Origin: a cyanobacterium endosymbiont of Rhopalodia gibba
GTDB lineage: Bacteria > Cyanobacteriota > Cyanobacteriia > Cyanobacteriales > Microcystaceae
Direction of reading: 5' to 3'
Assembly (NCBI GenBank): GCA_045159875.1
Contig: CP067995.1
Span: 582,970 to 622,969 of the forward strand
Length of the DNA: 40,000 nucleotides
Shown here: in pieces, positions 6,317 through 32,721 of the stretch
Layout: every line of letters starts with the position of its first letter
Position numbering within the stretch: position 1 is the first letter of the stretch
Program-made: the position numbers and the translations under genes
Notes under the pieces: generated by a model
Seen by the model: the letters and a program-made list of their open reading frames with translations, nothing else
Database searches by the model: none
What the model was told of the DNA's origin: nothing

Positions 6317-6601
6317 CTAGGCAGGAGCGTGAGCATAGCAGTTTTTAGGACAGATGCGAGCGCAAGCTTCACAACCAATGCAATTTTCCTTATTAGCAAT
6401 TGTCATAACTTGACGTTCGATATCGTCTTCATCTTCATCTTCGTCAACGAATTCTCCGTCTTCATTAACCCCCATTAAGGCTAATACTTTCTGACCACAG
6501 ACTTTAAAACAACGTCCACAACCCAGACAAGTATCTTTGTTGATAGAGTTAACAAATTGAGGAATCCATTCAAGTCCACCAAAAGTTAAAGCAGTTGCCA
6601 T
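6317..6601 (-). CDS. fdxB: nif-associated 2[4Fe-4S] ferredoxin (ferredoxin III type)
   Basis: 94 aa with two cluster motifs, [11 protein letters not shown] and [12 protein letters not shown], separated by an acidic DEDEDEDD insert. An AGGAG Shine-Dalgarno sequence precedes the ATG. Confidence 0.8.
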
Positions 6602-6615
6602 GTGTGTTCTCCTTT

Positions 6616-8565
6616 TTAAGATAATTTTGGCTTTGAGTGATCCTCGCTAGTTAACCGTAAAGGTTCACTAGGCGAGTATTCAAGGGTATGATATCCGCTT
6701 GAATTCTGTAATAGCAGCAGACGCTGCGGATGAAGCTGAACCCGCCAAGGAAAAGGGCGATCTTTGAGTTGCTGCCATTTGTCCTTCAACACCTCCACTT
6801 GTAAGTGGTAATCGTAGGGACTGGTAGGAGCGCAATTCAGCTTTAAATAAAGAGTCATCCGATGTTGGGTTTCACTAATGGTGGTTAACCAACAGGGGAA
6901 AACATTAATGTCGTGAAGGGGAGAAAATCTTTCAATATCAGGAAAAGTCAGTTGATGAGCGCGAATCCCTACATGGACTAAATTCGAGTCAATGGGATCA
7001 AATACCTCAAGGGTGCATCCCCAGTCAATAGCCGTAATTTTGTATTGGGCAACTTGTCTGACGCGGGAAAAATTCTTACAGCCAGTCAATTGAGCAACCC
7101 TAAAGCTTTGGGGATGTTCAAAAATCCCTTGTTTGGGTCCTTGAGCAATAATTTTTCCTTCTTCGAGAATCAAAAGATTAGGACAAACTCGATATGCTTC
7201 CTCTAGGTTATGAGTGACAAATAAGGTAACACCTTGATAACGAATCAAACTAGTCCTGAGAAGTTTTTCTAGTTGATCTCGTAAGTAGGTGTCCAGAGCA
7301 GAAAATGGTTCATCAAGTAGCAATATTTCTGGTTCGCTGGCTAAGGCACGGGCTAGAGCAATTCTTTGTTGTTGTCCTCCTGAAAGTTCTGTTGGATAGC
7401 GACCACCTAACGCATCCAATTGAACATTGCTCAAATGCTTCTTAATCCTAGCGCGAGTGGCACTTACCGAGAGTCCTTTAGGTAAACCAAAAGCAATATT
7501 CTGAGCAACTGTGAGATGGGGAAACAAGGCATAATTTTGGAACAGATAACCCACGCGACGCTCATGAATGGGTATATTAATCCCCTGACGAGAATCAAAT
7601 AAAACCCGGCCATTCAGGATAATCCGACCGCGATCAGGAGTCTCTAACCCTGTTATACAGCGTAAAATCATGCTTTTTCCTGCCCCAGAAGCCCCTAATA
7701 ACCCCAAGGGAAGTCCATCGGTATGAAAAGACACATCTAACAAAAATCCAGGTAATTGCTTCTGAATGTCAACAATTAGCTCAATTTGCGCTTTTGGCAC
7801 CGGATAATCCGTAGTGTTCCAAGTTAAACCTAATGCATCAGGATCGAGGTTTTCTCTTAACAAGTTGGGTTGTTTTAAAGAGGTTGTTCCTTTGCTTTTT
7901 TGTTTGGGCTGCCTATCAGACCAATAACTAACAATACTCATGATGCTAAGGGACAACACTAAGATGATCCCAACCCAAGCCAATGCCTGATTCATTGCTC
8001 CACTTTCGGCGGCAAAAAAGATGGCAATGGGAATTGTCTGGGTTTTCCCTGGAATACTACCAGCTAACATTAAAGTTGCCCCAAATTCTCCCAACGCTCT
8101 GGTAAAAGCCAATAAAATCCCAGCAATAAGGCCAGGTTTCGCTAGGGGTAGCAAGATTTGCCAGAAAACTCGTTCTTCTGATGCTCCTAGCGTTCTAGCA
8201 CTGGCTAACAAATTGGTGTCAATTTGTCTGAAGGACCCTAACATGGTTTTATACATTAATGGAAAGGCAACAACAACTGAGGCGATAACAGTAGCATACC
8301 AGGTGAAAATGACACTAATATTGAATAAAGCCAACAACTGTCCAATCGGTCCTTGCTTGCCTAACAAGAGTAATAAGACAAACCCCATTACCGTAGGGGG
8401 CAGTACCAAAGGAGCAGTTAATAACCCATCAATTAAACCTTTCCCTACTCCCCGATATTTGAACATCCAACGGGCTGCAGTCACACCGCAAAAGGAGGCA
8501 ATCAGTGTTGCTGTTAAGGCTGTTTTTGAGGAAATCCATACCGGAGAGAGGTCAAGATGCATCAT
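6616..8565 (-). CDS. modBC: Molybdate ABC transporter, fused permease (ModB) and ATPase (ModC) with a C-terminal TOBE-like region
   Basis: 649 aa. The N-terminal half is polytopic membrane with an EAA-like loop ([15 protein letters not shown]). The C-terminal half has Walker A GASGAGKS, signature LSGGQQQR and Walker B LLLDEP. Confidence 0.85.
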
Positions 8566-8640
8566 AATTTTTGCTTTTTACTTTTTACCCGTAATTGAGC
8601 ATTGCCCATCCCATAATTAATGGAGGTGCTTAACTGTCTT

Positions 8641-8892
8641 CTACCGAGTTCGTCTTACATAAATGGCACGGGCTAAGGTACGATCAATGGCAATTCGCAT
8701 TTCTCCAACTTTAATAACATATGAAGGAAATCGCTGTTCTAAGGTAATTTTAAGTCCAGGCATAATACCCATAGCGATCAGTTTTCGCAAGAGACTCTCA
8801 TCATTCTTTCTGAATTGAGTAATAATCCCTGTATCCTTCTCTTTGAGAAGATTTAGAGCTAAAGACTCAACGGTGAAACTTTGGGCAAACAT
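8641..8892 (-). CDS. feoA: Ferrous iron transport protein A
   Basis: 83-aa FeoA-like SH3 fold sequence (LRKLIAMGIMPGLKITLEQRFPSYVIKVGEMRIAIDRTLARAIYV). It starts 2 nt after the feoB membrane ORF ends. Confidence 0.8.
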   Translation of the reverse strand: MFAQSFTVESLALNLLKEKDTGIITQFRKNDESLLRKLIAMGIMPGLKITLEQRFPSYVIKVGEMRIAIDRTLARAIYVRRTR

Positions 8893-8893
8893 T

Positions 8894-10360
8894 TTAGAAC
8901 GTGACCTCCAGAATGGATAAGAGTTGATTGAGCAAATACCCCATTAAAAAGGCAAGTACAATAACAAAACTTGTCATGGCTAGAGTAATTTTAAGTCCGT
9001 GTTGTTTTAAAATTAATTGGAATTGAGTCAGACAGGGAATAAATAGAGTTAAGGTAACTGCCGCTACGATCAATTGACGACCCATCAAAACACCTGAGCG
9101 ATGAAGGTCAAACATAGCTGCAGCCCCATAGTCTCGGCGAAAAAATCCGTAAAGAAAAATGGAGGAAGTTGCGGGAGGAAGTCCTAACCAAATCATGATT
9201 GGCTCTAACTCTTTGAGCAATATTTCAAAGAGTCCAGACAGTTTTCCTAGCCAAATTAATACTGATACTAAAATGGATATGTGAATAATTTCCTTTAAAT
9301 ACCATAGAGTTCTTCCATAAGTTTTGCTCAAAATAGACTGAACTCTAGGTATCCTTAATGGGGGAATTTCTAGATAAAAACAGGCACTATCACCAGGTAG
9401 TATCTTGGCGGTTAATAACCCTACGATAACAAAGATAAAACTAATTGTTCCCACCCAAACAATTAGAGCAGTAGGACTTTGAGACAGTAACCCCAAAATA
9501 ACTCCTAATTGAGGCGAACAGGGGACAACTAAGGCTAATAATAGGGTAGCAATCACTCTTTCCCGTTTACTTTCTAAAGTGCGAGTAACAAGAGTAGCCA
9601 TCGTTCCACATCCTAATCCTAAAACTAGGGGAGTAATAGAACGTCCTGATAAACCTAAAGCTTTCAATAAGCGATCAGCCAATAGAGAAAGTCGAGGTAA
9701 GTAGCCACTATCTTCCAATAGAGAAAACATCAAAAAGAAAGTAGTTACAATAGGAAAAATAATAGCGATAACATATCTTAATCCTAAGGTAATAATGCCA
9801 TGCTCATTAGCAATTAAATTTTGCAAAATTGTCCAGGGCAAGAGAGCCGCAGTTATCTGATTAATCAGAGGGTTAATAGTTTTAGTGAAAAAACCTTCGA
9901 GATTACTGACTAATACTCCTACGCCAAAGCTACCAATAAATTGATAGATTCCAAAATAAAAAATAATTATTGCTAGGGGAAAGCCCGTAATGGGATTCAC
10001 AGTCAACTGATGGAAAAATTCCTCACTTTCCTGGGATTTTTTCTTTATATTAACCACCGATGATTCTGCTATTTTCCTAGATAATTGATGACGACTTTTT
10101 GCAACTACTAACACCAGAGGATCACTAAACTGAGACCTAACATAATCAATAACAGTTTGAATTTCTGGAAAATGGGGCTCTAGTTTTTTGGCTTTTTCCC
10201 AAAAAATGGGATCTCCTTGAATAAGTAATAGGGCCAAACTACGCTTCGCAATCGGATATTTACACGAACTAGAAGACCCTTGATGATCTTGTATCAGCAG
10301 GGACTCAATTCTTGTCAGCCCTTCTTCAATAGCTGTAGGATAGCGCAGGAGTGGTGACAT
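8894..10360 (-). CDS. feoB: FeoB membrane (permease) portion, a separate ORF from the G domain
   Basis: 488 aa and polytopic, with typical FeoB gate/core segments. Its ATG lies inside the last 35 nt of the G-domain ORF in another frame. Confidence 0.75.
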   Translation of the reverse strand: MSPLLRYPTAIEEGLTRIESLLIQDHQGSSSSCKYPIAKRSLALLLIQGDPIFWEKAKKLEPHFPEIQTVIDYVRSQFSDPLVLVVAKSRHQLSRKIAESSVVNIKKKSQESEEFFHQLTVNPITGFPLAIIIFYFGIYQFIGSFGVGVLVSNLEGFFTKTINPLINQITAALLPWTILQNLIANEHGIITLGLRYVIAIIFPIVTTFFLMFSLLEDSGYLPRLSLLADRLLKALGLSGRSITPLVLGLGCGTMATLVTRTLESKRERVIATLLLALVVPCSPQLGVILGLLSQSPTALIVWVGTISFIFVIVGLLTAKILPGDSACFYLEIPPLRIPRVQSILSKTYGRTLWYLKEIIHISILVSVLIWLGKLSGLFEILLKELEPIMIWLGLPPATSSIFLYGFFRRDYGAAAMFDLHRSGVLMGRQLIVAAVTLTLFIPCLTQFQLILKQHGLKITLAMTSFVIVLAFLMGYLLNQLLSILEVTF

Positions 10361-10958
10361 AATTACCGATCTTGGCTTTTAACGTTTGAATGCCTCTTTT
10401 TTGGTAGGCTGATAGGGTGATAACAGGAATACCGAGAGAGGCTTCTAATTGTTTTTCATTGACCCAAATTCCCAATTTTTCAGCTTCATCAAGCATATTG
10501 ACTGCCAATAAAACCGGAAGTTGAATTTCCATGAGTTGAAATGTCAAAGCTAACATTCGACTGAGATGTTTAGCATCAATAACATGAATAACTAAATCAA
10601 TCGATTCTGTTAATAAAAAATCCCGAGAACACTGTTCTTCTTCTGTCATGGGAATCAAAGAATACATCCCTGGAGTATCAATAATAGATACTGTTTGTCC
10701 AGAAATAATTGCCTGACCTTTGGAAATGTCAACAGTTGTCCCAGGATAATTAGAAACAGTTGTGTAACTACCTGTCAACAGGTTAAATAGAAGACTCTTT
10801 CCCACATTAGGAGAACCGACTAAAGCAATAGTAGCTCGAGTAGGAATTAAAGGGTTAGAGGATTTTTTGAACTGATTTCTTGTCCAAAAACGATCCCAGA
10901 TAGCTCTCAATTTACCCGGGGATGTTTGGGAAAAATCCCGACAGTGATTGCACGTCAT
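10326..10958 (-). CDS. feoB: FeoB N-terminal GTPase domain, a separate ORF
   Basis: 210 aa with G1 GSPNVGKS, G2 PGTT, G3 DTPG and G4 NMLD. It ends in a short out-of-frame-looking tail, TTPALSYSY. Confidence 0.75.
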   Translation of the reverse strand: MTCNHCRDFSQTSPGKLRAIWDRFWTRNQFKKSSNPLIPTRATIALVGSPNVGKSLLFNLLTGSYTTVSNYPGTTVDISKGQAIISGQTVSIIDTPGMYSLIPMTEEEQCSRDFLLTESIDLVIHVIDAKHLSRMLALTFQLMEIQLPVLLAVNMLDEAEKLGIWVNEKQLEASLGIPVITLSAYQKRGIQTLKAKIGNYVTTPALSYSY

Positions 10959-11258: not shown

Positions 11259-11483
11259 TTATTCTTCTACAATCTGACCAGGTTTAAAAAACCAAATAAT
11301 CCAAATACTTAGCATCAATTTAAGAATAGCTGAAGTCATCATAAACAATAAAAATATAGCTAAACTTCCTGCCATAATCGCTGCTAGTTTATGAATTTCG
11401 TCTTGACCTTTTAATCTAATCCAACTAGCAGTGATCCCGATAATTAACAATAAACAATAAACAGCAACCATAATTTCTCTCAA
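11259..11483 (-). CDS. Small two-helix membrane protein, unknown function
   Basis: 74-aa ORF with two hydrophobic stretches (VAVYCLLLIIGITASWI, AGSLAIFLLFMMTSAILKLMLSIWIIWFF). It lies on the same strand within the nif-linked operon. Confidence 0.45.
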   Translation of the reverse strand: MREIMVAVYCLLLIIGITASWIRLKGQDEIHKLAAIMAGSLAIFLLFMMTSAILKLMLSIWIIWFFKPGQIVEE

Positions 11484-11516
11484 TACTCCAATACTATTAG
11501 AGTGATTTAATCTAGT

Positions 11517-11867
11517 CTATATCTGAGGCTCAATATTAGTGGCAATCCAATACAATTCTAACCAGAGTCTAGGGTTCTTCTTTTTAAGATTAGACATAGG
11601 GTCTCTCACAATTCTTGTTGCATTTAGACAAACAACTTCAACTAATCCTAAATTCTCGGCAAGTTCTTTCAACTCTTTTTGATATAAAAGAATATTCTTT
11701 CCTGTTCTTGCAGAATAATAAATGGCAAGATAATGATAGAATTTCTCTTGTCTTTCCGCCCAACTATCAACAACGGTTAAATAACAACAACTCAATAGGT
11801 AGGAAATATGAGGATAATACTTATTGACAAGAGAAACATATTCTTCAAGTAATTTCTCACGAATCAT
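11517..11867 (-). CDS. Hypothetical protein linked to the nif cluster
   Basis: 116-aa ORF. Its ATG overlaps the stop of the upstream gene (agcaATGattcgTGA, 11857-11867), which suggests translational coupling. Confidence 0.55.
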   Translation of the reverse strand: MIREKLLEEYVSLVNKYYPHISYLLSCCYLTVVDSWAERQEKFYHYLAIYYSARTGKNILLYQKELKELAENLGLVEVVCLNATRIVRDPMSNLKKKNPRLWLELYWIATNIEPQI

Positions 11868-12234
11868 TGCTACAATCCCTCCACTTTAAACTATGAGATA
11901 GGTCAGAAAATAGAGAAGCTTTAATGCAATGGTTTTTGATTTTAGTGCATTTGTTAAAAAATACACCCTTATGACTGATACAATCCTTTAGGGGGTACTC
12001 AGAAAATTGGAAAGCTACCTCATTAATAGGACAGTCTTCGCTTATTTTTGGACAAAATTTAGGTTTAAGGCAAGATAGTTTAACAGTTTTGTGATTTTTT
12101 CGAGATAATTCTAATTCTTGTCCAAAAAGAAACTCACTATAGTCTGCTACATTATCCAGACCCAACAAATTGAGCAAAATCTCTCCCATCATCCAAAATG
12201 TTGTTTTGAAGACAAATGTTTTCCATTTGAGCAT
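11857..12234 (-). CDS. Cys-rich hypothetical protein linked to the nif cluster
   Basis: 125-aa ORF. Its N-terminal MGEILLNLLGLDNVADYSEF block is one I recall from conserved cyanobacterial small proteins, and it carries seven Cys residues. The true start may be at the internal MM (near 12192). Confidence 0.5.
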   Translation of the reverse strand: MLKWKTFVFKTTFWMMGEILLNLLGLDNVADYSEFLFGQELELSRKNHKTVKLSCLKPKFCPKISEDCPINEVAFQFSEYPLKDCISHKGVFFNKCTKIKNHCIKASLFSDLSHSLKWRDCSNDS

Positions 12235-12381: not shown

Positions 12382-12723
12382 TTACCCTAAGTAAGGTTCC
12401 TGATGAGTTTTAATCGTACAATCAGAGCGAGGATAAGCTACACAAAGAAGCACCCATCCTTTCTCAATTTGTTCATCATCCAAAAAGCTTTGATCTTCTT
12501 GATCAACTTCTCCCTCTACCATTCTGCCAACACAGCTAGAACAACCTCCTGAGCGGCAAGAAGAAGGTAACTCGATATCGTTTTCTTCAGCAAAATCCAG
12601 AATATACTGATCCTCTGGGACTTCTAAAGTTATGTCCATTTCCGCAACTTCTTCTTTCTTACCCGTCTCTTTATTTTTTCTTTTGGCAACTTTCATGAGA
12701 CGAACTTTATATGTAGTAGTCAT
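12382..12723 (-). CDS. fdxH: Plant-type [2Fe-2S] ferredoxin of the nitrogenase-donor (FdxH) type, with a Lys-rich N-terminal insertion
   Basis: It has the CRSGGCSSC...LLC ligand pattern and the FdxH-like tail [17 protein letters not shown]. At 113 aa it is about 14 residues longer than the FdxH I recall. Confidence 0.85.
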
Positions 12724-12765
12724 GTGTGTTCTCCTCCATTTAAGAACAGTAATTGGAAACTTGAA

Positions 12766-13125
12766 TTAGCTACAAGAGGTGGCTTTACTACCACAATCTC
12801 TTGATGAGAAAGACTTGCCACACCCACAGGTATCTCCAGCATTAGGATTAGTAAAGATAAATCCGCTTTGGGTTAAACTGTCCACAAAATCAATTACCAC
12901 CCCCTTGAGAAGAGGGAAACTTTGGGAATTAACATAAATAGGAACATTTTCTTGCTCAAAAAAGATATCCTGAGCGTCTGGCTGTTTGACTAGATTGAGG
13001 GTGTATTCATGGCCACCACAGCCTCCATCTTTTATCCCAACACGAATCCCGGTTACTTTAGCTCCTTTCTCTTCTAAGAAGGTACGAAGTCTAAAAGCCG
13101 CTTTTTCAGTTAAACTAACTGTCAT
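12766..13125 (-). CDS. hesB: HesB/IscA-family Fe-S cluster carrier
   Basis: 119 aa with the A-type carrier pattern GGCGG...NPNAGDTCGCGKSF. Confidence 0.85.
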   Translation of the reverse strand: MTVSLTEKAAFRLRTFLEEKGAKVTGIRVGIKDGGCGGHEYTLNLVKQPDAQDIFFEQENVPIYVNSQSFPLLKGVVIDFVDSLTQSGFIFTNPNAGDTCGCGKSFSSRDCGSKATSCS

Positions 13126-13247
13126 AATTTATCTCCACGTTTGATAGTTGCCGACTGTAAAGCTATATTCTCTGCTTACTGTTCATTACTCACTACCTAG
13201 AGTGCTCACTCTCGGTGTGTTTTGGTTGATTATCCCAGTCAAGTTTT

Positions 13248-13991
13248 CTAGGTTAAATCACCACAAACCGGACAGTCAGGATCATGATAAGGACGACGTT
13301 TAGCAAAGGTGGTACTCGCAAAATCCATGGTCAATAATTGTCCTGTCAATGGCTGTCCTAGCCCCGTAATTAGTTTCACAGCCTCTAAGGCGGCTAAACA
13401 AGCTAGGGTTCCTGAAACAGCCCCTAACACCCCAAATCCCCAACGGTCCCAAGTTGGTTTCTCAGGAAAAATACAGGACAAACAGGGGGTTTCCCCAGGA
13501 ATAACCGTGGTTAAGTAGGCTTCCATCTCACTCATAGCCGCTTCCACCATTGGAATTTTCTGTCGCACACAGGCGGCATTTAGGGCTTCACGTTCGTTAA
13601 AGTCAAAGGCACAGTCGAGGGCAATGTCGGCTTGTTGTATCAGATTATGGACATTCTCTGGGGTTACAAATTCGGGTATAGCCTCAATTTCTACATCAGG
13701 ATTGATTTCTAAAAGAGTTGTTTTGGCCTTGAATACCCTCGGTTTTCCTACCCAATCATCGGTCATCAAAATCTGACGGTTTAGGTCTTCTCGGCGAAGA
13801 TTGCCCCCTCGAACTAGAACTAACTTGCCTATTCCCGCGACAGCTAAGTAAAGGGCAACAGTTCCACCGAGCCCCCCTACTCCTGTAACAACAGCAGTAG
13901 TGGATTTTAGTTTCTTCTGCCCTTTCTCACCAAAGCCGTCTAATTGCATTTGACGAGAATAACGTTCTAATTCAATGGGGGTCAGTTCCAT
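13248..13991 (-). CDS. hesA: HesA (MoeB/ThiF-family adenylyltransferase)
   Basis: 247 aa with ERYSRQ, the nucleotide loop GVGGLGG and two CxxC pairs (CLSC, CPVC). Confidence 0.85.
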   Translation of the reverse strand: MELTPIELERYSRQMQLDGFGEKGQKKLKSTTAVVTGVGGLGGTVALYLAVAGIGKLVLVRGGNLRREDLNRQILMTDDWVGKPRVFKAKTTLLEINPDVEIEAIPEFVTPENVHNLIQQADIALDCAFDFNEREALNAACVRQKIPMVEAAMSEMEAYLTTVIPGETPCLSCIFPEKPTWDRWGFGVLGAVSGTLACLAALEAVKLITGLGQPLTGQLLTMDFASTTFAKRRPYHDPDCPVCGDLT

Positions 13992-13999
13992 AATGTTTC

Positions 14000-14335
14000 T
14001 TAATCCTCAATGTCCTTAGCTAAATCGTCAAGTAAGACTACGTTTTTAGGAGCGTCTTTGAAGACCTTAAATAGCTTAGTTTCTAGAGGACTAGAAGTTT
14101 TGAACAACTCATAAGCTTCTTGAAAAGCTTCACCATACTTAGCTAACTTTTCCGATTCGCTGATATTAGTAAACGCCTTATCAACGGCGGCAATAAGGAT
14201 GGAAAATTGCTTCAAAATATGAAGACGATTAACATTAACAAAACCGGGTTCATATTTAATTTCAAAAAATTGCAAAAAGTCTTCTGCATTAGTTAATTTA
14301 GAAAACTGTTCGTAAGTCTTTTCTGTACCAGCCAT
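14000..14335 (-). CDS. nifW: Nitrogenase-stabilising/protective protein NifW
   Basis: 111 aa with the NifW-like AEDFLQFFEIKYEPGFVNVNRLHILKQF. It sits between DUF683 and hesA, as in other cyanobacterial clusters. Confidence 0.8.
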   Translation of the reverse strand: MAGTEKTYEQFSKLTNAEDFLQFFEIKYEPGFVNVNRLHILKQFSILIAAVDKAFTNISESEKLAKYGEAFQEAYELFKTSSPLETKLFKVFKDAPKNVVLLDDLAKDIED

Positions 14336-14336
14336 T

Positions 14337-14573
14337 TCAGAGTTCCTCCCAGATTTTGAGTTGTTTTTTTAGTCGATCTAGTTCAAAATAAATATCGTAA
14401 GTTTTCTGAGCCATCTCTAGCAAGGTTTTGTAATTTATCGGTAAGCCTTCTGCTAGATCGTGCAAATCCATTTTTTGTTGACCCGCTCTGGAATTGAGTC
14501 GTTTAATGGATTTCTTGAGAGCTTCTATATCTTCTGGTGTCGGTTTAGTGGTTGTTGCTTCTCCCATTTTCAC
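14337..14573 (-). CDS. DUF683 (CCE_0567-type) small nif-cluster protein
   Basis: 78 aa and helical (DLHDLAEGLP motif). Its stop is 1 nt from the nifW start. Position and size match the family as I recall it from Cyanothece. Confidence 0.7.
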   Translation of the reverse strand: MKMGEATTTKPTPEDIEALKKSIKRLNSRAGQQKMDLHDLAEGLPINYKTLLEMAQKTYDIYFELDRLKKQLKIWEEL

Positions 14574-14712
14574 TTAACTCTTCTTTAACAAACCGTTAGC
14601 AATGAACAATTTCCACTTAATTATTGTTCAGAAAAATTAAAACAGCTATTTCTGATAAATATTCGTCAAAAACTCTTGGTTTAAGAGAATAAATCTTAAT
14701 AGATTTTAGCCA

Positions 14713-25349: not shown

Positions 25350-25614
25350 CGCAGGGTACCCATAAATAAATTCCGTGATAGAGCAACTAACAGTTAAGTC
25401 AAAGGCAGGAGACAGACGTTAAAATCTCAATCAAATCCTGATCGCGCTTTGGAATAAGAAGAAAGCTAATTTTTGTGAATAGACGTTTAACCAGTGTTTC
25501 CAATAGGGCTGACCTTGGTTTGGTTTTGAGGCATCTTAATGAAGTTTGGTAACGACTGAACTAGTTCTCCTAATAATCAGCCGATGGCTGGACCGAAGCT
25601 AAAGGAGAGCAATG

Positions 25615-25642
25615 GTTACAAGTGGTAGGTTACAAGTGGTAG
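25615..25642. repeat. Perfect tandem duplication of a 14-nt unit (gttacaagtggtag x2)
   Basis: Read directly. It lies at the 3-prime end of the fdxN-like fragment 25616-25744, and 14 nt is not a multiple of three. Confidence 0.85.
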
Positions 25643-25744
25643 CGTCAATGAGCAAGACATCTTTATTATAGCATTAGTGGGACATCTAACACTACAGCGA
25701 TGATAGACAATACATTCAGATGTTGATGTTATGGCGTAACTCAT
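25616..25744 (-). pseudogene. fdxN-like fragment (N-terminal cluster motif, one Cys substituted, truncated)
   Basis: Hand translation gives MSYAITSTSECIVYHRCSVRCPTNAIIKMSCSLTLPLVTYHL*. It resembles the FdxN N-terminus as I recall it (MAYTITSQCISCKLCSSVCPTGAIK), but CxxCxxCxxxCP reads CxxYxxCxxxCP and the ORF stops after 42 codons. Confidence 0.45.
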
Positions 25745-25769: not shown

Positions 25770-25961
25770 TTACTGGCTGCTGCCTAAATTGGGTAAACAG
25801 CTATAATCTTGGGAAAATCCCGCACAGGGGGGAATACTGTGGTCATCGACGCAACTATAACAGGTATTTTGAGCGTCATTGTCGGGCTGATGACCTATAG
25901 AAATAGAAGTTGCTGGGAAAACGGTAGAAGCTTTCACAGGAGTGATAATAATAGAATTCAT
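25770..25961 (-). pseudogene. fdxN: Degenerate fdxN directly downstream of nifB
   Basis: 63 aa. VFPATSISI stands in place of VCPTGAIKI, and CYSCVDDHSIPPCAGFS in place of CTNCVDTVYTVPQCKAGCP. All four first-cluster cysteines and the terminal CP of the second motif are substituted. Confidence 0.55.
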
Positions 25962-25964
25962 TAT

Positions 25965-27416
25965 CTATGATACTCCCATTGATTTGTTAGACTTTGTAAA
26001 CTGCTCGTAGAAATCTAGGGCTACTTTGTCAATAACATCGTAAGCCTCAAAGGGTTCTAACCCAGCCTTACGCAACTCCTCTTGGGGGCAAAGACCAATT
26101 TTAGAAGCAAGCACTCCTTTGCAATCAGCAATAGCTTTGATGATATGCTCAAGAGTCGCTTTCTCGCCATACCCAGTTTGACAATAATGGTCGACTTTGC
26201 GATGAGCTACAAATTTAACATCTGCACCATCAACCTCAAATATTTGAAATTCCTTAGCGTGACCAAAGTGTTGGTTTACTAAGCGATTCCCTTTAGTTGC
26301 TACTGCTACAAGTATTTTAGGACCTTTTTTGAGTGTTTTAGCAGCTTTTGCGGCTTTCACCTCAGCGGTAAATTTTTCAATACCTTCGTGGACTTTCTGG
26401 CGGGTAGCTAAATCATATTCAGGCGTCATCTCGAGGAACTTGTCTTTGGTGAATTCCTGAGAACGGTCTTCTCCTAAGAGTCCTACTGCGTCTGCTCGAC
26501 ATTGACGACAGTGACGCATCATTTTCATGTTACCAGAACAACTGTCTTGAACTGCTTTAAGTTCTTTGGGGCTAGGACCGCGTTGTCCGGTTAATCCAAA
26601 GTGGGTTCCATGCTCAGGCGCACTGATCAAAGGCATGATGTTATGAAGAAATGCACCTTTAGCACGAATAACTTCATTAACTTCTGCCAGGTGTTGGTCG
26701 TTAACTCCAGGAATCATAACCGAGTTAACCTTGCAAAGGATGTCTGCCTCCCTAAGGGCATCTAGGGACTCCATTTGCTTCTCTAAGAGAATTCTGACGC
26801 CTTCAATTCCCTTATAACGTTTGCGATTATAACGTACCCAAGGATAGATTTTCTCCCCAATCTTAGGGTCAACCATATTAATAGTTAGGGTAACATGGTC
26901 GATTTTCAGTTCTTTGATTTTATCAATGTACTCTGTTAACATCAAGCCGTTGCTTGACAGACATAATTTAATGTCGGGAGCTTGCTCAGCTACTAATTCA
27001 AAGGTACGGAAAGTATGCTTAGGATTCGCCAAGGGATCACCGGGACCCGCAATACCCAACACGGTCATTTGAGGAATCTTTCCGGCAATAACTAGAGCCT
27101 TGTGGGCAGCCTCTTCGGGGGTTAGAACTTCACTAACTACTCCTGGACGGCTTTCGTTGGCACAATCGTACTTGCGGTTACAATAGTTACATTGAATGTT
27201 ACAAGCAGGGGCAACTGCTACGTGCAATCTAGCATAGTGATGGTGTGCGTCCTCACTATAACAAGGATGTTTAGCAATCCGTTCCTGAATATTTTCAGGA
27301 ATAACTCGAGAGGCAGAGGAATCGCAGCCACATGGTCCTGAAGCTTTTATTGTAGATGGAGTTGCTGTCTTGGCTGCTGATGAGTCAGAGTTAGTTAAAC
27401 TGGTTGATTGTAACAT
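25965..27416 (-). CDS. nifB: FeMo-cofactor biosynthesis radical SAM protein NifB with a C-terminal NifX-like domain
   Basis: 483 aa with the radical SAM motif [14 protein letters not shown], the conserved [17 protein letters not shown], and a C-terminal [13 protein letters not shown] domain. Confidence 0.95.
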
Positions 27417-27675
27417 TGAATTCCGTGGAGTAAGAGGTGGCTAAAAAATGACCTAAGAGCATCTGGTGATTCAGTCGCTTGCTGGAACTTATCACAATAA
27501 GAGTCAAAAACGATCAATTTCCGTCCTTGGCGTCTATGCAAGTTATATCACTTCCTCTGGCAGTTCTTGATGCAGACAGCTGAGTTGGGATTTATCAAAC
27601 TTGTTAGAAAGTACTCAAATGCTGGAATCTCTTTCCTAACGCCATGCTAACGCAATGTTATTTTTTTTAGGGGTC

Positions 27676-27697
27676 ATGGGGCTAGTATTTTTAGTAC
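27676..27697. repeat. Motif A copy 1: atggggctagtatttttagtac
   Basis: It is the inverted counterpart of 28254-28277 (a 2-nt indel and 1 mismatch). It contains GTA-N7-TAC. Confidence 0.7.
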
Positions 27698-27730
27698 GAG
27701 GTCTAAGTATTTTTTTTAGGGGATACGAGC

Positions 27731-27743
27731 ATTTATGCACTCA
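27731..27743 (-). repeat. Motif B copy (TGAGTGCATAAAT read on the minus strand)
   Basis: The plus strand reads atttatgcactca. The same 13-mer occurs at 28336-28348 and, with one R change, at 28208-28220. Confidence 0.7.
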
Positions 27744-28207
27744 AGAGATAACCCCTACTGGAGAAAGAGCTGGGACCATTCTGGGACAGTTAAGTTCTTC
27801 ATAATTTTGCACTCAACTACCTCTTACCGAAAACAAAAGACAGCAGACTCTCCGGCAAAAGTTGATACGGTTGATATATTTTTTCCGCTTTGCTGTTTTC
27901 TTTCTATGTTTAGGTCTTTTCCTGTTTTTTTCTTCACTCCTTACACTACAAAAAACCGGAGTAAGCGTTCCGAAGCTCCTCCAGTGCTGTCACGGAATCC
28001 AATTCTGTATCTAAAGTAACACTTTTTTTAAGATAAAGCTGACTTTAACTTACATCTACCCTAATCTTTGTACATCAAAATCCCTAAAGACCTTATTTCA
28101 TAAGGAATTTAACTGTTAACTAACAATCAATTCTTGAGTTCTTTAGATGATGTCTTTGAATTTTCTTTTTATGGGGTTTAAATCCTTACTCTGATTGATG
28201 TCTAAAT

Positions 28208-28220
28208 TGAGTACATAAAT
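28208..28220 (+). repeat. Motif B copy: TGAGTACATAAAT
   Basis: Read directly; it lies 128 nt upstream of the next copy. Confidence 0.7.
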
Positions 28221-28253
28221 ACTTTAACCAATACCTATAAATACATAGACACT

Positions 28254-28277
28254 GTACCAAAAATACTAGCACCCCAT
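28254..28277. repeat. Motif A copy 2 (inverted): gtaccaaaaatactagcaccccat
   Basis: Its reverse complement is atggggtgctagtatttttggtac, compared with atggggctagtatttttagtac at 27676-27697. Confidence 0.7.
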
Positions 28278-28335
28278 ACTCAAAAAAAGATTTGCTAACG
28301 ACGCAAATACTTGAAATATAAATCTGCTAAGATTT

Positions 28336-28348
28336 TGAGTGCATAAAT
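28336..28348 (+). repeat. Motif B copy: TGAGTGCATAAAT, about 100 nt upstream of the cysE ATG
   Basis: Read directly. Confidence 0.7.
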
Positions 28349-28449
28349 AACTAATGTTTATTAACTAGACCTGCCTCAATTGTCTTGGATGGTTCAGGGT
28401 AACTTGGTATAAGCATAACAACTAGGTCTATGTAGAATCACGGAATTCA

Positions 28450-29181
28450 ATGTTTGGATCCATACCGCTTAGAGACGGCCGTTCTGAAAGTCAAGATGAT
28501 CGCCTAAAAGTTTCAACTACGACTTTGTCGGCACCCTCCCACCCGACTAAGCTGCCGTTGAAGACTCTTTGGGAAGACTTTCAAATAATTTTTTCTCGTG
28601 ATCCAGCTGCTCGCAACTGGCTGGAAGTGTTATGTTGTTATCCAGGGTTGCACGCCCTAGTCTTGCATCGTATCTCTCATTGGCTGTGGCATTATGAAGT
28701 ACCTTTTGTGCCGCGCTTTCTTTCCCATTTAGGGAGATTTTTTACAGGTATTGAAATTCATCCAGGAGCGACCCTCGGACAAGGAGTCTTCATCGACCAC
28801 GGTATGGGGGTGGTTATAGGGGAGACTGCTATTGTTGGTGATTATTGTCTAATTTATCAAAACGTTACCCTCGGCGGTACTGGGAAAGAGCTTGGCAAAC
28901 GTCACCCTACCCTCGGCAACAATGTGGTGGTGGGGGCGGGAGCTAAAGTTTTAGGAAATATTGCCATTGGTGATCACGTTCGTATCGGAGCCGGTTCAAT
29001 TATTCTAAGAAATGTGCCTAGTGATTGCACTGTGGTCGGTGTGCCAGGTCGTATTATTTCCCGCAGTGGTCGTGGTTGTCCATTAGAACACGGCAAGTTA
29101 CCCGATGTAGAAGCCCAAGTTATTCGGACCTTGTTGGACCGAATTGAGCAATTGGAACAAAAGATACAAAACCTATCCTAA
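28450..29181 (+). CDS. cysE: Serine O-acetyltransferase (nif-cluster copy, called nifP in some cyanobacteria)
   Basis: 243 aa with the SAT N-domain [20 protein letters not shown] and hexapeptide repeats [28 protein letters not shown]. Confidence 0.9.
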
Positions 29182-29196
29182 GCCTACTCTACCATT

Positions 29197-29475
29197 ATGA
29201 TCAGATCATCTCGTCCCGATGCGTTAATCAGCCAAGTTGCGAAAGTTTCTCGATGTGAACGCTGGTTACTCCACCGTCGCCTTGAAGAACTAATGATCCC
29301 TTCTTGGTGTCCCGATGATGGCTCTTTATGGGTGGAAATTCAACACGGCATTGATGCTATTCTTTTACGCAGCACTGTCTACCAAGCGAGTGCCTCTCGT
29401 CAAGAACTGGTGGATTGGCTCGGACGCTGCTGGGAAGCAGATGACACCCTTTCTACTCAATTCTACAATAGTTGA
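29197..29475 (+). CDS. Small conserved cyanobacterial nif-cluster protein (I recall the family name Asr1405/Asl0597)
   Basis: 92 aa. The CERWLLHRRLEELMIPSWCPDDGSLWVEI block matches my memory of that family. Confidence 0.6.
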   Translation: MIRSSRPDALISQVAKVSRCERWLLHRRLEELMIPSWCPDDGSLWVEIQHGIDAILLRSTVYQASASRQELVDWLGRCWEADDTLSTQFYNS

Positions 29476-29585
29476 GGATATTTTTCTCGAACTTGTCGCT
29501 TTTCCGGTTTGTTTTTTGCGCCCTTAACTCGTTGAGACCTAGCTCCGCTGGCTGATTGCGGAATAATTAGTTTTTTAGTGCTGTC

Positions 29586-29798
29586 ATGGAAGATCATCCA
29601 ATCTCTAACGAATTCACTCAATTTTTACAACAAGAACTATCTCTTTCATCCGATGACCTAGCGGTTGCTCTAAACAATCGCCGACAACCAGGAGATCCTA
29701 TTCCTATGTTGCTATGGCAATATGGATTAATTTCTAGAGGACAACTCCAGAGAATTTGGGATTGGCTTGATGCTCAGATTCAATTCCAGTTTCCTTGA
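29586..29798 (+). CDS. Small conserved cyanobacterial protein (DUF2949-like)
   Basis: 70 aa with FLQQELSLSSDDLAVAL...PIPMLLWQYGLISRGQLQRIWDWLD. Confidence 0.6.
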   Translation: MEDHPISNEFTQFLQQELSLSSDDLAVALNNRRQPGDPIPMLLWQYGLISRGQLQRIWDWLDAQIQFQFP

Positions 29799-29845
29799 CT
29801 ATCATTTTAGCAAGTTCTTACCTATAGTTGTCGAGACATTAAGCC

Positions 29846-30979
29846 ATGGACAAAACTCGCATTAATGATACCACCCTCAGAGATGGAGAACAAGCAGCTG
29901 GTATTGTTTTCACTCCCGAAGAAAAAATATCTCTAGCTAATTTGATGGATGCTATGGGCATTCCCGAATTAGAAGTAGGAATTCCGGCCATGGGAGGAAG
30001 TGAAGCAGAAGCCATTACAGCGATCACCCAGTTAGGATTGAAAGCCGATTTATTAGGCTGGAATCGGGCAGTCCGCTCCGATGTGGAAGCTTCCCTTGCT
30101 TGTGGACTCAAACGAGTTCACATCTCCATTCCCGTGTCTGAGCTACAAATTCAAGCTAAGTTCAAGGGTGATCGCAGCCTGGTTTTTACCTGTCTAGAGA
30201 ACACCCTCAAATTTGCCGTGGATAATGGTCTGTTTGTTTCTGTAGGAGCAGAAGATTCCTCTAGAGCTTCAGAAGAATTTTTGCTAGAGGTTGCTCGCGC
30301 TGCTCAGGAATGGGGGGCATCTCGTTTTCGATTCTGCGATACGGTAGGTATTCTCAATCCTATTACCACTACCAAAAAAGTTGGAAATTTAGTGAAAGAG
30401 TTATCAATTCCCGTAGAGATGCATACTCATAACGACTTTGGCTTGGCTACAGCCAATGCTTTAGCTGGACTCCAGGCGGGAGCTACTTCGGTGAATACTA
30501 CCGTTAATGGGTTGGGGGAACGAGCAGGGAATGCGGCTTTAGAAGAAATAATTATGGCTCTAAAGCATCTATATCAGGTGGACTTGAGCGTTAAGACTTG
30601 TCATTTGAGGGAATTGTCCCAGTTGGTCATTGCTGCCTCGGGTCATACTCTTCCTCCTTGGAAGGCTGTAGTAGGAGACAATGTCTTCTCCCACGAATCA
30701 GGTATCCATGCCCACGGAGTTCTTAAAAATCCCCAAACCTATGAGCCCTTTTCCCCAGAGGAAATCGGTTGGCAAAGACGATTGGTTGTAGGTAAGCATT
30801 CTGGACGACATCTAGTTGCTAATTTGCTAAAACAACATGGCATTACTTTAGATCGTGAGGAAGCCCAATTTGTCTTAGATGCAGTGCGCAATTTGTCAGT
30901 TCAGATGAAACGAAGTTTAACAGTAGATGAATTACTTAATTTAGTACCTCATAGGAGAATATCTCATGGGATTATATAA
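29846..30979 (+). CDS. nifV: Homocitrate synthase NifV
   Basis: 377 aa with INDTTLRDGEQ, HTHNDFGLATANALAG and NGLGERAGNAALEE. Confidence 0.9.
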   Translation: MDKTRINDTTLRDGEQAAGIVFTPEEKISLANLMDAMGIPELEVGIPAMGGSEAEAITAITQLGLKADLLGWNRAVRSDVEASLACGLKRVHISIPVSELQIQAKFKGDRSLVFTCLENTLKFAVDNGLFVSVGAEDSSRASEEFLLEVARAAQEWGASRFRFCDTVGILNPITTTKKVGNLVKELSIPVEMHTHNDFGLATANALAGLQAGATSVNTTVNGLGERAGNAALEEIIMALKHLYQVDLSVKTCHLRELSQLVIAASGHTLPPWKAVVGDNVFSHESGIHAHGVLKNPQTYEPFSPEEIGWQRRLVVGKHSGRHLVANLLKQHGITLDREEAQFVLDAVRNLSVQMKRSLTVDELLNLVPHRRISHGII

Positions 30980-31277
30980 TCCTGGCGAAATCGAACTAAA
31001 TGATCCTCCATTTTTTCAAATGGAGGAAAAAGTCCGCTTACGGAAAATGATTCGTAATGATGGAACATTTCCGGGTAAAGAACTTGGTCAAACTTTAGCG
31101 AAAAAAGGTGATGTTGGCTATGTAGTTGGTATTGGAACCTATCTACAGAGTTATTATATTTATGCGGTGCATTTTATTGATAGTGGCTTTGTTGTGGGGT
31201 GTCGCCGCAAGGAACTAGAATCAGCGGAGGATCCTGAAACCCTAGAACGTCGTAAGGAGGAGATGAGTCGCTATTGA
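30966..31277 (+). CDS. nifZ: NifZ
   Basis: 103 aa with EKVRLRKMIRNDGTFPGKELGQTLAKKGDVGYVV and YIYAVHF. It overlaps the nifV end by 14 nt. An alternative start exists at 31020. Confidence 0.8.
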   Translation: MGLYNPGEIELNDPPFFQMEEKVRLRKMIRNDGTFPGKELGQTLAKKGDVGYVVGIGTYLQSYYIYAVHFIDSGFVVGCRRKELESAEDPETLERRKEEMSRY

Positions 31278-31296
31278 TTAATACACCAAAAAAGTT

Positions 31297-31324
31297 AGAA
31301 TTATAATCATTTAATTATAATTCT
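31297..31324 (+). other. AT-rich 11-bp perfect hairpin between nifZ and nifT
   Basis: agaattataat / cattta / attataattct, read directly. Confidence 0.4.
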
Positions 31325-31366
31325 GCCTTCTACATTAGTGTTTAGATTGTTATTAGGAGTTATTTC

Positions 31367-31567
31367 ATGAAAGTTATTTTAAGTCGTAATGATACAGGCA
31401 ATTTATCTGTCTACGTTCCTAAAAAGGACTTAGAGGAAGTGGTGGTTAACGAAACCCCTGCAGATGAGGGAAAAATTCTAACCTTGGCTAATGGTTGGGA
31501 TTTAAAGTTTCCTACCTTGACCGATGATACTAAGTTACCTCAAACTATGGAAGCGACAAAACTGTAA
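31367..31567 (+). CDS. nifT: NifT/FixU
   Basis: 66 aa with MKVILSRNDTGNLSVYVPKKDLEE, typical of NifT. Confidence 0.8.
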   Translation: MKVILSRNDTGNLSVYVPKKDLEEVVVNETPADEGKILTLANGWDLKFPTLTDDTKLPQTMEATKL

Positions 31568-31638
31568 TTACTGTTAGTTTTTGAAGAATAAAACAGAGGT
31601 AACTTTTTTAGTGAATAGGAAAAGTAAAGGGCAAGGGG

Positions 31639-31686
31639 AAGAAGTTAAAATATCTGTTCCTCCCTCTTACCTCATTTTAACTTCTT
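31639..31686 (+). other. 13-bp perfect inverted repeat with a C/U-rich 22-nt loop, in the nifT to next-gene spacer
   Basis: aagaagttaaaat ... attttaacttctt, read directly. Confidence 0.45.
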
Positions 31687-31713
31687 AATTCTTTAATTAT
31701 TGAGGATTTAGTC

Positions 31714-32310
31714 ATGGATTCAGTGCATTACCAAACTTTATCATTTCGATTAGAAGGTCAATTCGTTGGATTTATCAACAAGTCCAATGGCCGATTAAAG
31801 TCTCTGCGATTAATACTTAATGGCAAAGAGTTACATATTAAATTGGATAAAGAATTACGGGGTTCCTTAGGGAATAGTTTAGCTGTTGGTGACTGGATTC
31901 AGGTTGTAGGAAGACAAAAATTCAAGGGTAGTTTTACTGACTTTAAACTAAAAGCATTTCAAGTAAATCGATTGAGTTATAGCTTAGAGTGTCAAGATAA
32001 TGTAAACCAAAATTATTCAGTAATTTCTGAAGATCGCTCGTCGAGTTGTCTGAAAAAAGGCAAAATTCTTTTGTGTAATAAATCTGATTGTGCCAAAAAT
32101 GGTAGTGAAGAACTTTATCAAGAACTCCAAAAAACTATCTATCGTTTGGGGTTAGAAGATTCTGTAACTATCCAAAAAACAAGTTGTCAGAAACGCTGTA
32201 AAAAAGCGCCCAATATGATTTTAATGCCTGGGAAAGAAAAATGCAGCAACCCTCAACCTCAGAGTATTGTAAGTCTTCTCCGTGATCATTATTTAGCTCC
32301 TATGGACTAA
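31714..32310 (+). CDS. Protein with a C-terminal thioredoxin-like [2Fe-2S] ferredoxin domain
   Basis: 198 aa. The C-terminal half has ILLCNKSDCAKNG ... TSCQKRCKKAPN (a Cx4C ... Cx3C pattern). Confidence 0.65.
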   Translation: MDSVHYQTLSFRLEGQFVGFINKSNGRLKSLRLILNGKELHIKLDKELRGSLGNSLAVGDWIQVVGRQKFKGSFTDFKLKAFQVNRLSYSLECQDNVNQNYSVISEDRSSSCLKKGKILLCNKSDCAKNGSEELYQELQKTIYRLGLEDSVTIQKTSCQKRCKKAPNMILMPGKEKCSNPQPQSIVSLLRDHYLAPMD

Positions 32311-32316
32311 GAAAAA

Positions 32317-32721
32317 ATGACTAATATTATTTTCTATGAAAAACCCGGTTGTATTAACAATACAAAGCAGAAAAAACTCCTCTGGAGTGCAGGTCATACC
32401 TTGGATATTCGTAACCTGTTGACGACCTCTTGGACTTTAGAAAAATTACGACCTTTTTTTGGTGATCGACCTGTTCAAGAGTGGTTTAACCCTACTGCCC
32501 CTCGAATTAAGTCAGGGGAAATTGTTCCAAGAAAATTAGACGAGAAAACAGCACTTAACTTAATGATAGCTGATCCTCTATTGATTCGTCGTCCTCTTAT
32601 TCAAGTGGAAGAAGTTTTTCAAGTAGGATTTGATGTGGAACAAATCGACTCTTGGATTGGTTTAAATAGTTTAAGTACAAAAATAGAAGATTTAGAAACT
32701 TGTCCTAACATTTTCCAATAA
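32317..32721 (+). CDS. ArsC/Spx-family nitrogenase-associated protein
   Basis: 134 aa with IIFYEKPGCINNTKQKKLL and LLIRRPLI, characteristic of the ArsC-fold family found in nif clusters. Confidence 0.7.
   Translation: MTNIIFYEKPGCINNTKQKKLLWSAGHTLDIRNLLTTSWTLEKLRPFFGDRPVQEWFNPTAPRIKSGEIVPRKLDEKTALNLMIADPLLIRRPLIQVEEVFQVGFDVEQIDSWIGLNSLSTKIEDLETCPNIFQ

Follow-up and report, generated by a model that had tools for sequence, protein, structure and literature searches.

The stretch of DNA considered here (the window, 40,000 nt of contig CP067995.1) is the nif region of a spheroid body, or diazoplast: the obligate, non-photosynthetic, N2-fixing cyanobacterium that lives inside the diatom Rhopalodia (Epithemia) gibba. 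Its core nif genes are under strong purifying selection, and three accessory genes interleaved with them, nifU, fdxN and a gene of the Mo-nitro_C family (PF06967), are decaying. A further locus, the transporter gene feoB, is split in two, and by comparison with relatives this looks like an ancestral and functional two-gene form. We put the probability of this explanation as a whole at roughly 0.9. An initial annotation of the window had proposed reductive evolution in an obligate N2-fixing cyanobacterial symbiont, and the three pseudogenes, set among core genes under purifying selection, bear this out. Pseudogenes make up 3 of the ~34 cluster genes (~9%), and the genome-wide share in the R. 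gibba symbiont is 7.7% (PMC11131595). The cluster is therefore not unusually eroded relative to its genome; what is non-random is which genes decayed, and all three of the lost genes encode Cys-rich Fe-S or ferredoxin-type accessory proteins.

A NifE scan of one GTDB genome per bacterial species gave two closest relatives, both at 97% amino acid (aa) identity: the symbiont of Epithemia clementina (EcSB, L001) and that of E. turgida (EtSB, L002). Next came a cyanobacterial chromosome labelled uoEpiScrs1 (L003), SU2 (L004), Crocosphaera and Cyanothece strains (85-89%), and UCYN-A4 (80%). Gene order is identical to that of L001-L011, which is the synteny of the Cyanothece/Crocosphaera-type nif cluster. 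On the minus strand it runs nifB, a 63-aa open reading frame (ORF), the fdxN relic, nifS, the nifU remnant, nifH, nifD, nifK, the Mo-nitro_C relic, nifE, nifN, nifX, DUF269, a Rop-like gene, nifW, hesA, hesB, fdxH, three ORFs, the N- and C-terminal feoB genes, feoA, modBC, and fdxB. On the plus strand it runs cysE, a 92-aa ORF, DUF2949, nifV, nifZ, nifT, a 198-aa ORF, and an ArsC-like gene. The core genes and the three decayed ones are given below, with the ratio of nonsynonymous to synonymous substitution rates (dN/dS) where it bears on their status.

25965..27416, minus strand: nifB, intact; TIGR01290 651 bits (cut-off 344); dN/dS 0.04-0.06 against other symbionts and SU2

25440..25744, minus strand: fdxN, pseudogene; three frames hold relics (25667-25744, 25519-25617, 25440-25526), and there are two in-frame stops

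24147..25349, minus strand: nifS, intact, somewhat accelerated; TIGR03402 611 bits (cut-off 531); SGHK and SSGSACTS motifs present

23740..24072, minus strand: nifU remnant, the ~6 first codons plus the C-terminal Nfu domain; 110 aa from MWDY, or 115 aa if started at 24087

22422..23294, minus strand: nifH, intact; TIGR01287 452 bits (cut-off 394); dN/dS 0.07-0.10 against other symbionts

20814..22250, minus strand: nifD, intact; TIGR01282 879 bits (cut-off 654); dN/dS 0.04-0.05

19128..20663, minus strand: nifK, intact, 511 aa as called (the longest ORF reaches 20759); TIGR01286 928 bits (cut-off 427)

18736..19010, minus strand: Mo-nitro_C (PF06967), pseudogene; frameshifted, with relics in at least two frames, internal stops, and Cys replaced by Tyr

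12382..18639, minus strand: nifE, nifN, nifX, DUF269, Rop-like, nifW, hesA, hesB, and fdxH, intact by family models; dN/dS 0.04-0.35

The initial annotation had described the nif core, hesA, hesB, fdxH, and fdxB as intact, and the family models agree. NCBIfam equivalog cut-offs are exceeded by nifB, nifS, nifH, nifD, nifK, nifE, nifN, nifX, and nifW; hesB and fdxH pass NCBIfam subfamily models; and nifV, nifZ, nifT, fdxB, feoA, and modBC have Pfam support. For hesA there is no specific model, and MoeB/ThiF-type models match it below their cut-offs. Selection on these genes is strong: dN/dS is 0.04-0.13 for nifB, nifD, nifK, nifE, and nifN against EcSB, EtSB, L003, and SU2. Within Rhopalodia, that is, against the symbionts of R. 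yunnanensis and R. inflata, they lie between 0.02 and 0.33; over all comparisons nifB, nifD, nifE, and nifN are at 0.02-0.13. The nifU remnant gives 0.79-1.29, and this is the contrast between short ORFs and core genes by which erosion was expected to show itself. On the plus strand, nifV, nifZ, cysE, and DUF2949 have ratios of 0.05-0.15 against the Rhopalodia symbionts.

Gene callers start the nifU remnant at MWDY, which gives 110 aa; the ORF as listed, 23740-24087, gives 115 aa. When it is aligned with the full-length genes of EcSB and SU2, the first ~6 codons are seen to be fused in frame to the C-terminal Nfu domain. What lay between, namely the IscU-like domain and the central region with its four [2Fe-2S] cysteines, has been deleted, and a single Cys is left. 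The CxxC motif has changed from CGSC to CSSF (TGT to TTT), and a further in-frame deletion of 18 nt has removed six residues from within the Nfu domain. Against the NifU model (TIGR02000) the remnant scores 55.5 bits (cut-off 273.3) and matches only positions 176-288 of 290, which falls short of NifU proper, and the Nfu domain itself is still recognisable (PF01106, 47 bits). The earlier description of a nifU cut to 115 aa with a broken CxxC thus stands.

Its substitution pattern is that of a sequence free of constraint. Against EtSB, in a nucleotide alignment kept in the EcSB frame, dN is 0.189 and dS 0.169, a ratio of 1.12; against the symbionts of R. yunnanensis and R. inflata the ratios are 0.79 and 1.29. 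(A protein-guided codon alignment with EtSB returned a dN of 0.459, inflated by the EtSB frameshift, and was replaced by the nucleotide alignment.) Differences by codon position number 18/19/11 against EtSB and 4/9/6 and 7/8/7 within Rhopalodia. The intact pair EcSB-SU2, by comparison, has a dN/dS of 0.12 and codon-position differences of 17/8/37. Within Rhopalodia, 13-17 of the 110 residues of the remnant differ, as against 1 of up to 479 aligned residues of NifD. A relative-rate test on NifU with SU2 as outgroup counts 18 changes specific to the window and 5 specific to EcSB (p = 0.007).

An open frame of 110 codons in several lineages was considered as a sign of selection and rejected. Only 3.8% of single substitutions in the remnant would create a stop, and over the ~33 substitutions of a three-taxon tree the chance of none arising is ~0.27. 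Because dN/dS is close to 1, there is no excess of third-position changes, and an open frame is readily expected by chance, the nifU remnant is best read, from its pattern of substitution, as a neutrally evolving pseudogene whose frame happens to be open.

In a large protein collection, the CSSF form of 110 aa also occurs in a UniRef-named R. gibba endosymbiont entry (P0001; 92% identical to the window remnant, with 9 of 110 residues different) and in the symbionts of R. yunnanensis and R. inflata. Remnants of the E. adnata type are longer (132-143 aa), keep 31 N-terminal residues, and share the downstream junction with the window; the CxxC reads CGSC in some of them (P0004, P0005) and CGSR in one. 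In the EtSB copy the frame is interrupted by a stop and a frameshift. Full-length nifU is found in EcSB, L003, and UCYN-A4.

Could the short forms then be bona fide variants, with the 110-aa NifU a working minimal Nfu-like protein, such as a NifS partner or cluster carrier, and no pseudogenes in the cluster at all? The ORF is open in four Rhopalodia lineages, is a predicted protein in public annotations, and still matches PF01106, and the CGSC of some E. adnata-type remnants would suit a functional protein. Crocosphaera watsonii WH 8501 and Crocosphaera sp. Alani8, moreover, carry only an Nfu domain fused to NifS, with its CxxC intact, so a minimal Nfu can work in this clade. Every Rhopalodia copy, however, has Phe in place of the second CxxC Cys together with the six-residue deletion, the sister copy in EtSB is frameshifted, and the substitution pattern and the chance of an open frame given above speak for neutrality. 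Nor can fdxN and Mo-nitro_C, with their stops and frameshifts, be variants. We regard this explanation as very unlikely and retain decay of all three genes.

The gene next to the remnant may have been affected. Counted against EcSB, whose nifU is intact, NifS has 23 lineage-specific aa changes in the window and 9 in EcSB (p = 0.013), and EtSB likewise has 24 against 10 (p = 0.016); in L003, where nifU is intact, the count is 11 against 14. The excess in the lineages that lack nifU is ~2.5-fold, and the catalytic Lys and Cys motifs of the window NifS are intact. NifS may therefore be relaxed in nifU-less lineages, a signal that is weak after multiple testing and comes from two lineages that share a branch.

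An FdxN-type 2[4Fe-4S] ferredoxin would be an unbroken ORF of ~120 aa with two Cys motifs, and the nifB-nifS slot of the window holds only relics of one. That at 25667-25744 reads MSYAITSTSECIVYHRCSVRCPTNAI; the first 4Fe-4S cluster motif reads CIVYHRCSVRCP, in which the second Cys has become Tyr. The middle part is degenerate and the second cluster motif is destroyed. Both in-frame stops lie in the relic at 25519-25617, and the last relic is at 25440-25526. The degradation and the loss of Cys that the initial annotation had described are confirmed; its count of two fragments is not, as the homology runs over three frames with stops and the adjoining 63-aa ORF is a separate gene. In L003 and SU2 the gene is intact; in EcSB its ORF is open but has lost the Cys ligands, and in EtSB it is frameshifted. 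No fdxN was found in the nifB-nifS slot of the UCYN-A4, WH 8501, and Alani8 loci.

Between nifK and nifE, where a small Cys-motif ORF had been called degraded, there is indeed a frameshifted Mo-nitro_C relic. An unbroken ORF of ~101 aa with the conserved Cys is absent; IPCxCPFER now reads VSYACSFKR and PPLCKLNP reads PLLYKLKP, and the 72-aa ORF listed at this position is a chimeric frame. The intact homologue of 101-102 aa in CCY0110 scores 131 bits on PF06967, and the slot is also filled in Crocosphaera/Cyanothece relatives and in SU2. The gene is degraded in EcSB, EtSB, and L003 as well, intact in SU2 and Crocosphaera, and without a match in the UCYN-A4 locus. A tblastn search with the CCY0110 FdxN and Mo-nitro_C proteins gave no match in the window at E ≤ 1e-3; the relics did not emerge until closer references (L003, SU2) were used under relaxed settings, or three-frame translations were read.

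The split feoB is a different matter. Its two genes are as follows.

10326..10958, minus strand: feoB N-terminal gene (NFeoB, G domain), 210 aa; PF02421 positions 2-156 of 156; dN/dS 0.14-0.19

8894..10360, minus strand: feoB C-terminal gene (CFeoB, helical and membrane domains), 488 aa; dN/dS 0.10-0.15

CFeoB begins with FeoB_Cyto from residue 7 (PF17910, 1-89 of 90), followed by Gate, FeoB_C, and Gate (PF07670 twice, PF07664). The set of domains (G, cytosolic helical, Gate/FeoB_C) is thus complete across two ORFs rather than within a single polypeptide, and the split falls between a complete FeoB_N model and the start of FeoB_Cyto. The junction (AAT TATG...TGA), with its 35-nt overlap, its own ATG, and its stop position, is the same in 11 of 11 genomes compared, namely the window, EcSB, EtSB, L003, SU2, SU3, CCY0110, WH 8501, Alani8, XPORK-15E, and BG0011; six of these (Crocosphaera/Cyanothece strains plus SU2 and SU3) carry no endosymbiont label. 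Neither half shows a relative-rate excess. From this comparison, the split appears to be a working two-gene form inherited from free-living ancestors of the Crocosphaera/Cyanothece type and still under selection.

The initial annotation had taken it for a frameshift and a sign of erosion. Two overlapping ORFs are there, and a frameshifted gene would likewise leave ORFs overlapping by 35 nt in different frames; canonical FeoB is also a single polypeptide. A recent inactivating frameshift would not, however, be expected to recur with the same junction and its own ATG across 11 genomes, of which six bear no endosymbiont label, to fall exactly between two domains, or to leave both halves at dN/dS 0.10-0.19 with no excess in rate. 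Recent erosion is thereby refuted. As to a rejoining of the ORFs by programmed ribosomal frameshifting, the conserved ATG argues for separate initiation. The NFeoB/CFeoB split is rare (<0.6% of genomes) and is reported as a conserved architecture in diazoplasts and in C. subtropica ATCC 51142 (bioRxiv 10.64898/2026.04.23.720389). We regard a frameshift of either kind as very unlikely, and the inherited two-gene form is the reading that we keep. The proviso that relatives might carry a short form under purifying selection holds for feoB, which makes it a bona fide variant.

In split NFeoB/CFeoB transporters, a G-domain gene and a helical/membrane gene are adjacent and are followed by feoA, and the window has exactly this arrangement. 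The window feoB has nothing to set it apart from the copies in related genomes and is an ordinary example of a rare architecture, and the split should not be scored as a pseudogene. The more general claim that metal accessory genes are eroded also fails: the ORFs of feoA, feoB, and modBC are intact and their domains complete, and purifying selection acts on the first two. A second feoAB is reported on a symbiont plasmid (bioRxiv 10.64898/2026.04.23.720389).

Lesions in low-GC (guanine plus cytosine), homopolymer-rich genomes deserve suspicion, as these are prone to indel errors, and the initial annotation had allowed for assembly error. The Logan assembly of SRR26035201, which is one of the genome read sets of the R. 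gibba 17Bon1 spheroid body (CP067995) (PMC11131595), matches window positions 5754-27136 with 0 mismatches over 21,383 nt. In all, 14 run assemblies (2 genomic read sets and at least 12 further runs) are 100% identical where they cover the window, and together they span 5754-29072, including all four loci. A contig from an unrelated environmental metagenome, 99.93% identical to the window, has the nifU truncation too. Independent DNA, RNA-sequencing (RNA-seq)-run, and environmental assemblies thus agree, and the lesions, or older versions of them, also occur in EtSB, EcSB, and L003, so that error as an explanation has next to nothing left in its favour.

Fragmented nif gene calls in two public Rhopalodia symbiont assemblies might seem to support it. 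In the symbionts of R. yunnanensis (L096, CP191493.1) and R. inflata (L097, CP191494.1), nifH, nifD, nifK, nifE, nifB, nifS, and nifV are called in pieces. These records, however, hold 1,617 and 4,848 N within 20 kb, and the gene breaks coincide with runs of N and not with indels. A loss of nitrogenase in these two symbionts is accordingly rejected as an assembly artefact.

The RNA-seq series of the same strain (SRR263799xx; PMC11131595) adds that nifB to nifH and nifD to fdxB were each assembled as long contigs, relics included. Such contigs would be expected if the relics are passively co-transcribed within the nif operons.

How might such a pattern have come about? If the host keeps the symbiont for N2 fixation, the structural and FeMo-cofactor genes would stay under purifying selection. 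The NifU scaffold, the FdxN ferredoxin, and the Mo-nitro_C protein would have been released from it and so exposed to deletion, frameshift, and substitution. They would have become redundant if SUF takes care of Fe-S assembly and FdxH, FdxB, or other ferredoxins of electron transfer; SUF clusters are reported in all diazoplasts (bioRxiv 10.64898/2026.04.23.720389). In a small, host-restricted population, decay would then proceed by deletion bias and AT-biased mutation, and outside the cluster AT-rich non-coding DNA would stand in place of lost genes.

An order of loss may also be proposed. Mo-nitro_C, which is dead in all four symbiont genomes compared (the window, EcSB, EtSB, and L003), was probably the earliest of the three. 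Loss of fdxN would have followed, given the series of states from intact (L003) through open but without ligands (EcSB) to frameshifted (EtSB, window). nifU would come last, by one large internal deletion common to the E. adnata/E. turgida and Rhopalodia symbionts; after it the Rhopalodia line would have lost ~26 more codons, and the CxxC or the frame would have been lost independently in different lines.

Several points weigh against this account. The order of loss is drawn from few genomes and without a species tree, and by dS alone the window appears nearer to EtSB than to EcSB. Compensation by SUF is taken from the literature, and the suf genes would have to be sought outside the window. 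Contigs from RNA-seq runs could in principle include carried-over DNA. The 110-codon nifU frame does remain open in four Rhopalodia symbiont lineages with a 47-bit PF01106 match, and, as far as sequence alone can tell, the remnant may have some residual function other than cluster binding. More tentative still, and in our view doubtful, is the proposal that decay of the NIF-specific Fe-S system is stepwise and still running, with ligands lost independently from an Nfu-only remnant in several diazoplast lines, NifS possibly next, and nitrogenase maturation left wholly to the housekeeping SUF system. If true, it would mean that a Crocosphaera-type cluster needs neither NifU, FdxN, nor Mo-nitro_C, which would be useful for minimal nif designs in phototrophs.

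Most of this is already known. The same locus in another strain of R. gibba was described in 2008 (Kneip et al. 2008, BMC Evol Biol 8:30, PMC2246100). That paper reports an fdxN* pseudogene whose homology is spread across three frames and a nifU shortened by ~170 N-terminal residues; the rest of the nif set is conserved there and syntenic with Cyanothece 51142. By its account the shortened nifU retains the coding sequence of the [2Fe-2S] domain, with the C-terminal domain intact, whereas in the window and in P0001 the central cysteines are absent and the CxxC reads CSSF. The Mo-nitro_C pseudogene does not appear in the passages, or in the part of the pseudogene table, that were consulted. A 2021 survey noted the EtSB nifU pseudogene. 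For E. adnata, E. turgida, and R. gibba, a 2026 preprint describes nifU as truncated and likely inactive, with SUF proposed as back-up (bioRxiv 10.64898/2026.04.23.720389). The fdxN pseudogene, the nifU truncation, and the AT-rich DNA (2008), as well as the inactive nifU, the SUF back-up, and the split feoB (2026), should thus be credited to earlier work. What we add is a remnant without [2Fe-2S] domain or CxxC, a quantified case for its neutrality, a Mo-nitro_C relic absent from the consulted passages of the 2008 paper, and a possible relaxation of NifS.

The diazoplast genomes of E. turgida (EtSB), E. adnata, and E. clementina (EcSB) have the gene order of the window and its split feoB; in them, too, Mo-nitro_C is degraded and fdxN is decaying. 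The nifU of EtSB and E. adnata is likewise truncated, at the window's downstream deletion junction, but with 31 N-terminal residues where the window has ~6. EcSB and L003, unlike the window, keep a full-length nifU; the EtSB remnant is frameshifted where the window ORF is open, and some E. adnata/E. turgida remnants retain CGSC.

Two further groups have gone in similar directions independently. The nif cluster of UCYN-A (Candidatus Atelocyanobacterium thalassa, the nitroplast) is of the same Cyanothece type and lies in the reduced, low-GC genome of a symbiont or organelle, and neither fdxN nor Mo-nitro_C was detected in the UCYN-A4 locus. It departs from the window in its full-length nifU (79% identical to that of CCY0110) and in showing no feoB or feoA match at the corresponding position. 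C. watsonii WH 8501 and Alani8, whose records carry no endosymbiont label, lack the IscU-like and [2Fe-2S] parts of NifU as well as an fdxN between nifB and nifS, through independent loss. Their NifS is fused in frame to the Nfu domain (WH 8501, L011:3304-4713, 469 aa; Alani8, L010:~3443-4849), with the CxxC intact as CDAC, and unlike the window they keep Mo-nitro_C. This fusion is apparently an independent and functional minimisation of NifU. The comparison indicates that the first two NifU domains, and FdxN in the nifB-nifS slot, are dispensable in the clade.

The suggestion that the region is simply a naturally minimised nif set is therefore not truly a rival to decay, since the same genes are missing or reduced in other diazotrophs of the clade. 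With fdxN, Mo-nitro_C, and most or all of NifU lost repeatedly across diatom symbionts, UCYN-A, and C. watsonii-type strains, the group offers a natural experiment on which accessory genes a Cyanothece-type nitrogenase can do without. This is of relevance to moving the cluster into phototrophs.

The remaining genes of the cluster are listed here.

6317..8892, minus strand: feoA, modBC fusion, and fdxB, intact by Pfam; feoA dN/dS 0.04-0.16

11259..12234, minus strand: three conserved ORFs (125, 116, and 70 aa) between fdxH and feoB; dN/dS 0.03-0.16 for the two larger

25770..25961, minus strand: conserved small Cys-rich ORF, 63 aa, starting 4 nt after nifB; homologous ORFs of 62-69 aa follow nifB in relatives

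28450..32721, plus strand: cysE (nifP), 92-aa ORF, DUF2949, nifV, nifZ, nifT, 198-aa ORF, and ArsC-like gene, intact by Pfam, the 198-aa ORF putatively so

The 63-aa ORF was considered as a fragment of fdxN and rejected, being a separate conserved gene that follows nifB in all relatives (for example L009:1975-2175, L011:3013-3213, and L072:2743-2826). Its C-terminal motif, CxxCVDDxSIPPCxGFSxDYSC, is kept in Crocosphaera strains, in diatom symbionts, and even in UCYN-A4, and its N-terminal half is variable (dN/dS 0.24-0.78). It has no family match in NCBIfam or Pfam. Because it is retained in strongly reduced genomes, its sequence suggests a real, uncharacterised, nif-associated small Cys-rich protein.

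The ORFs of 125, 116, and 70 aa found no family match in NCBIfam/Pfam-type scans. Homologues of the first occur in UCYN-A4 and in free-living Crocosphaera strains. The two larger are under strong purifying selection, and the ORFs between fdxH and feoB are conserved nif-cluster genes. Scans of the window for tRNA genes and Rfam families gave no matches.

Several smaller observations may be of use to those annotating related clusters. The hesA product (13248-13991, minus strand) is 247 aa long; its aligned span is similar in other symbionts and UCYN-A4 (~246-258 residues), and free-living relatives have 265-289 aa. Its C-terminal tail is shortened or variable, and the conserved core is under purifying selection (dN/dS 0.06-0.10). 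The 198-aa ORF 3' of nifT (31714-32310, plus strand) has a sub-threshold match to PF01257, a thioredoxin-like [2Fe-2S] ferredoxin (22.2 bits, cut-off 24.8), and its R. yunnanensis counterpart is called at 157 aa next to a run of N. The modBC fusion is 651 aa long, in the window as in Crocosphaera sp. XPORK-15E. Between feoA and modBC, CCY0110 and SU3 have a 292-aa ORF (L009:19850-20728, L008:20003-20878), which from its position alone we take to be modA-like; the counterpart position in the window is 8566-8640. No match to this ORF was found in the window, the other symbionts, WH 8501, Alani8, XPORK-15E, or BG0011, and because the last four also lack one, its absence is not specific to symbionts.

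There remain the spaces between genes. The GC content of the nif cluster is 41% and that of its flanks 19-35%. Three of these spaces are listed here.

4219..6316, no strand: 2.1-kb gene-free stretch, 21% GC, adjoining fdxB, outside the cluster

32722..34156, no strand: 1.4-kb gene-free stretch, 25% GC, on the other flank

27417..28449, no strand: divergent nifB-cysE spacer, 1033 nt, 36% GC; 995-1047 nt in Alani8, WH 8501, and EtSB

The kb-scale AT-rich gene-free stretches described in the initial annotation do exist, but they are not interleaved with the cluster: all those longer than 1 kb at 21-26% GC (2361-3430, 4219-6316, 32722-34156, and 37056-38271) lie outside 6317-32721. Pfam searches of the three minus-strand frames of 4219-6316 gave no gene relic at E ≤ 1, and this stretch corresponds to the AT-rich non-coding region of ~2000 bp next to fdxIII in the 2008 R. 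gibba account (PMC2246100). Within the cluster, gaps exceed 400 nt at both pseudogene slots, between nifU and nifH (445 nt), and between nifB and cysE (1033 nt, the only one on the kb scale). The nifB-cysE spacer was considered as erosion and rejected, as it has equal length in the relatives whose loci reach it and is thus ancestral.

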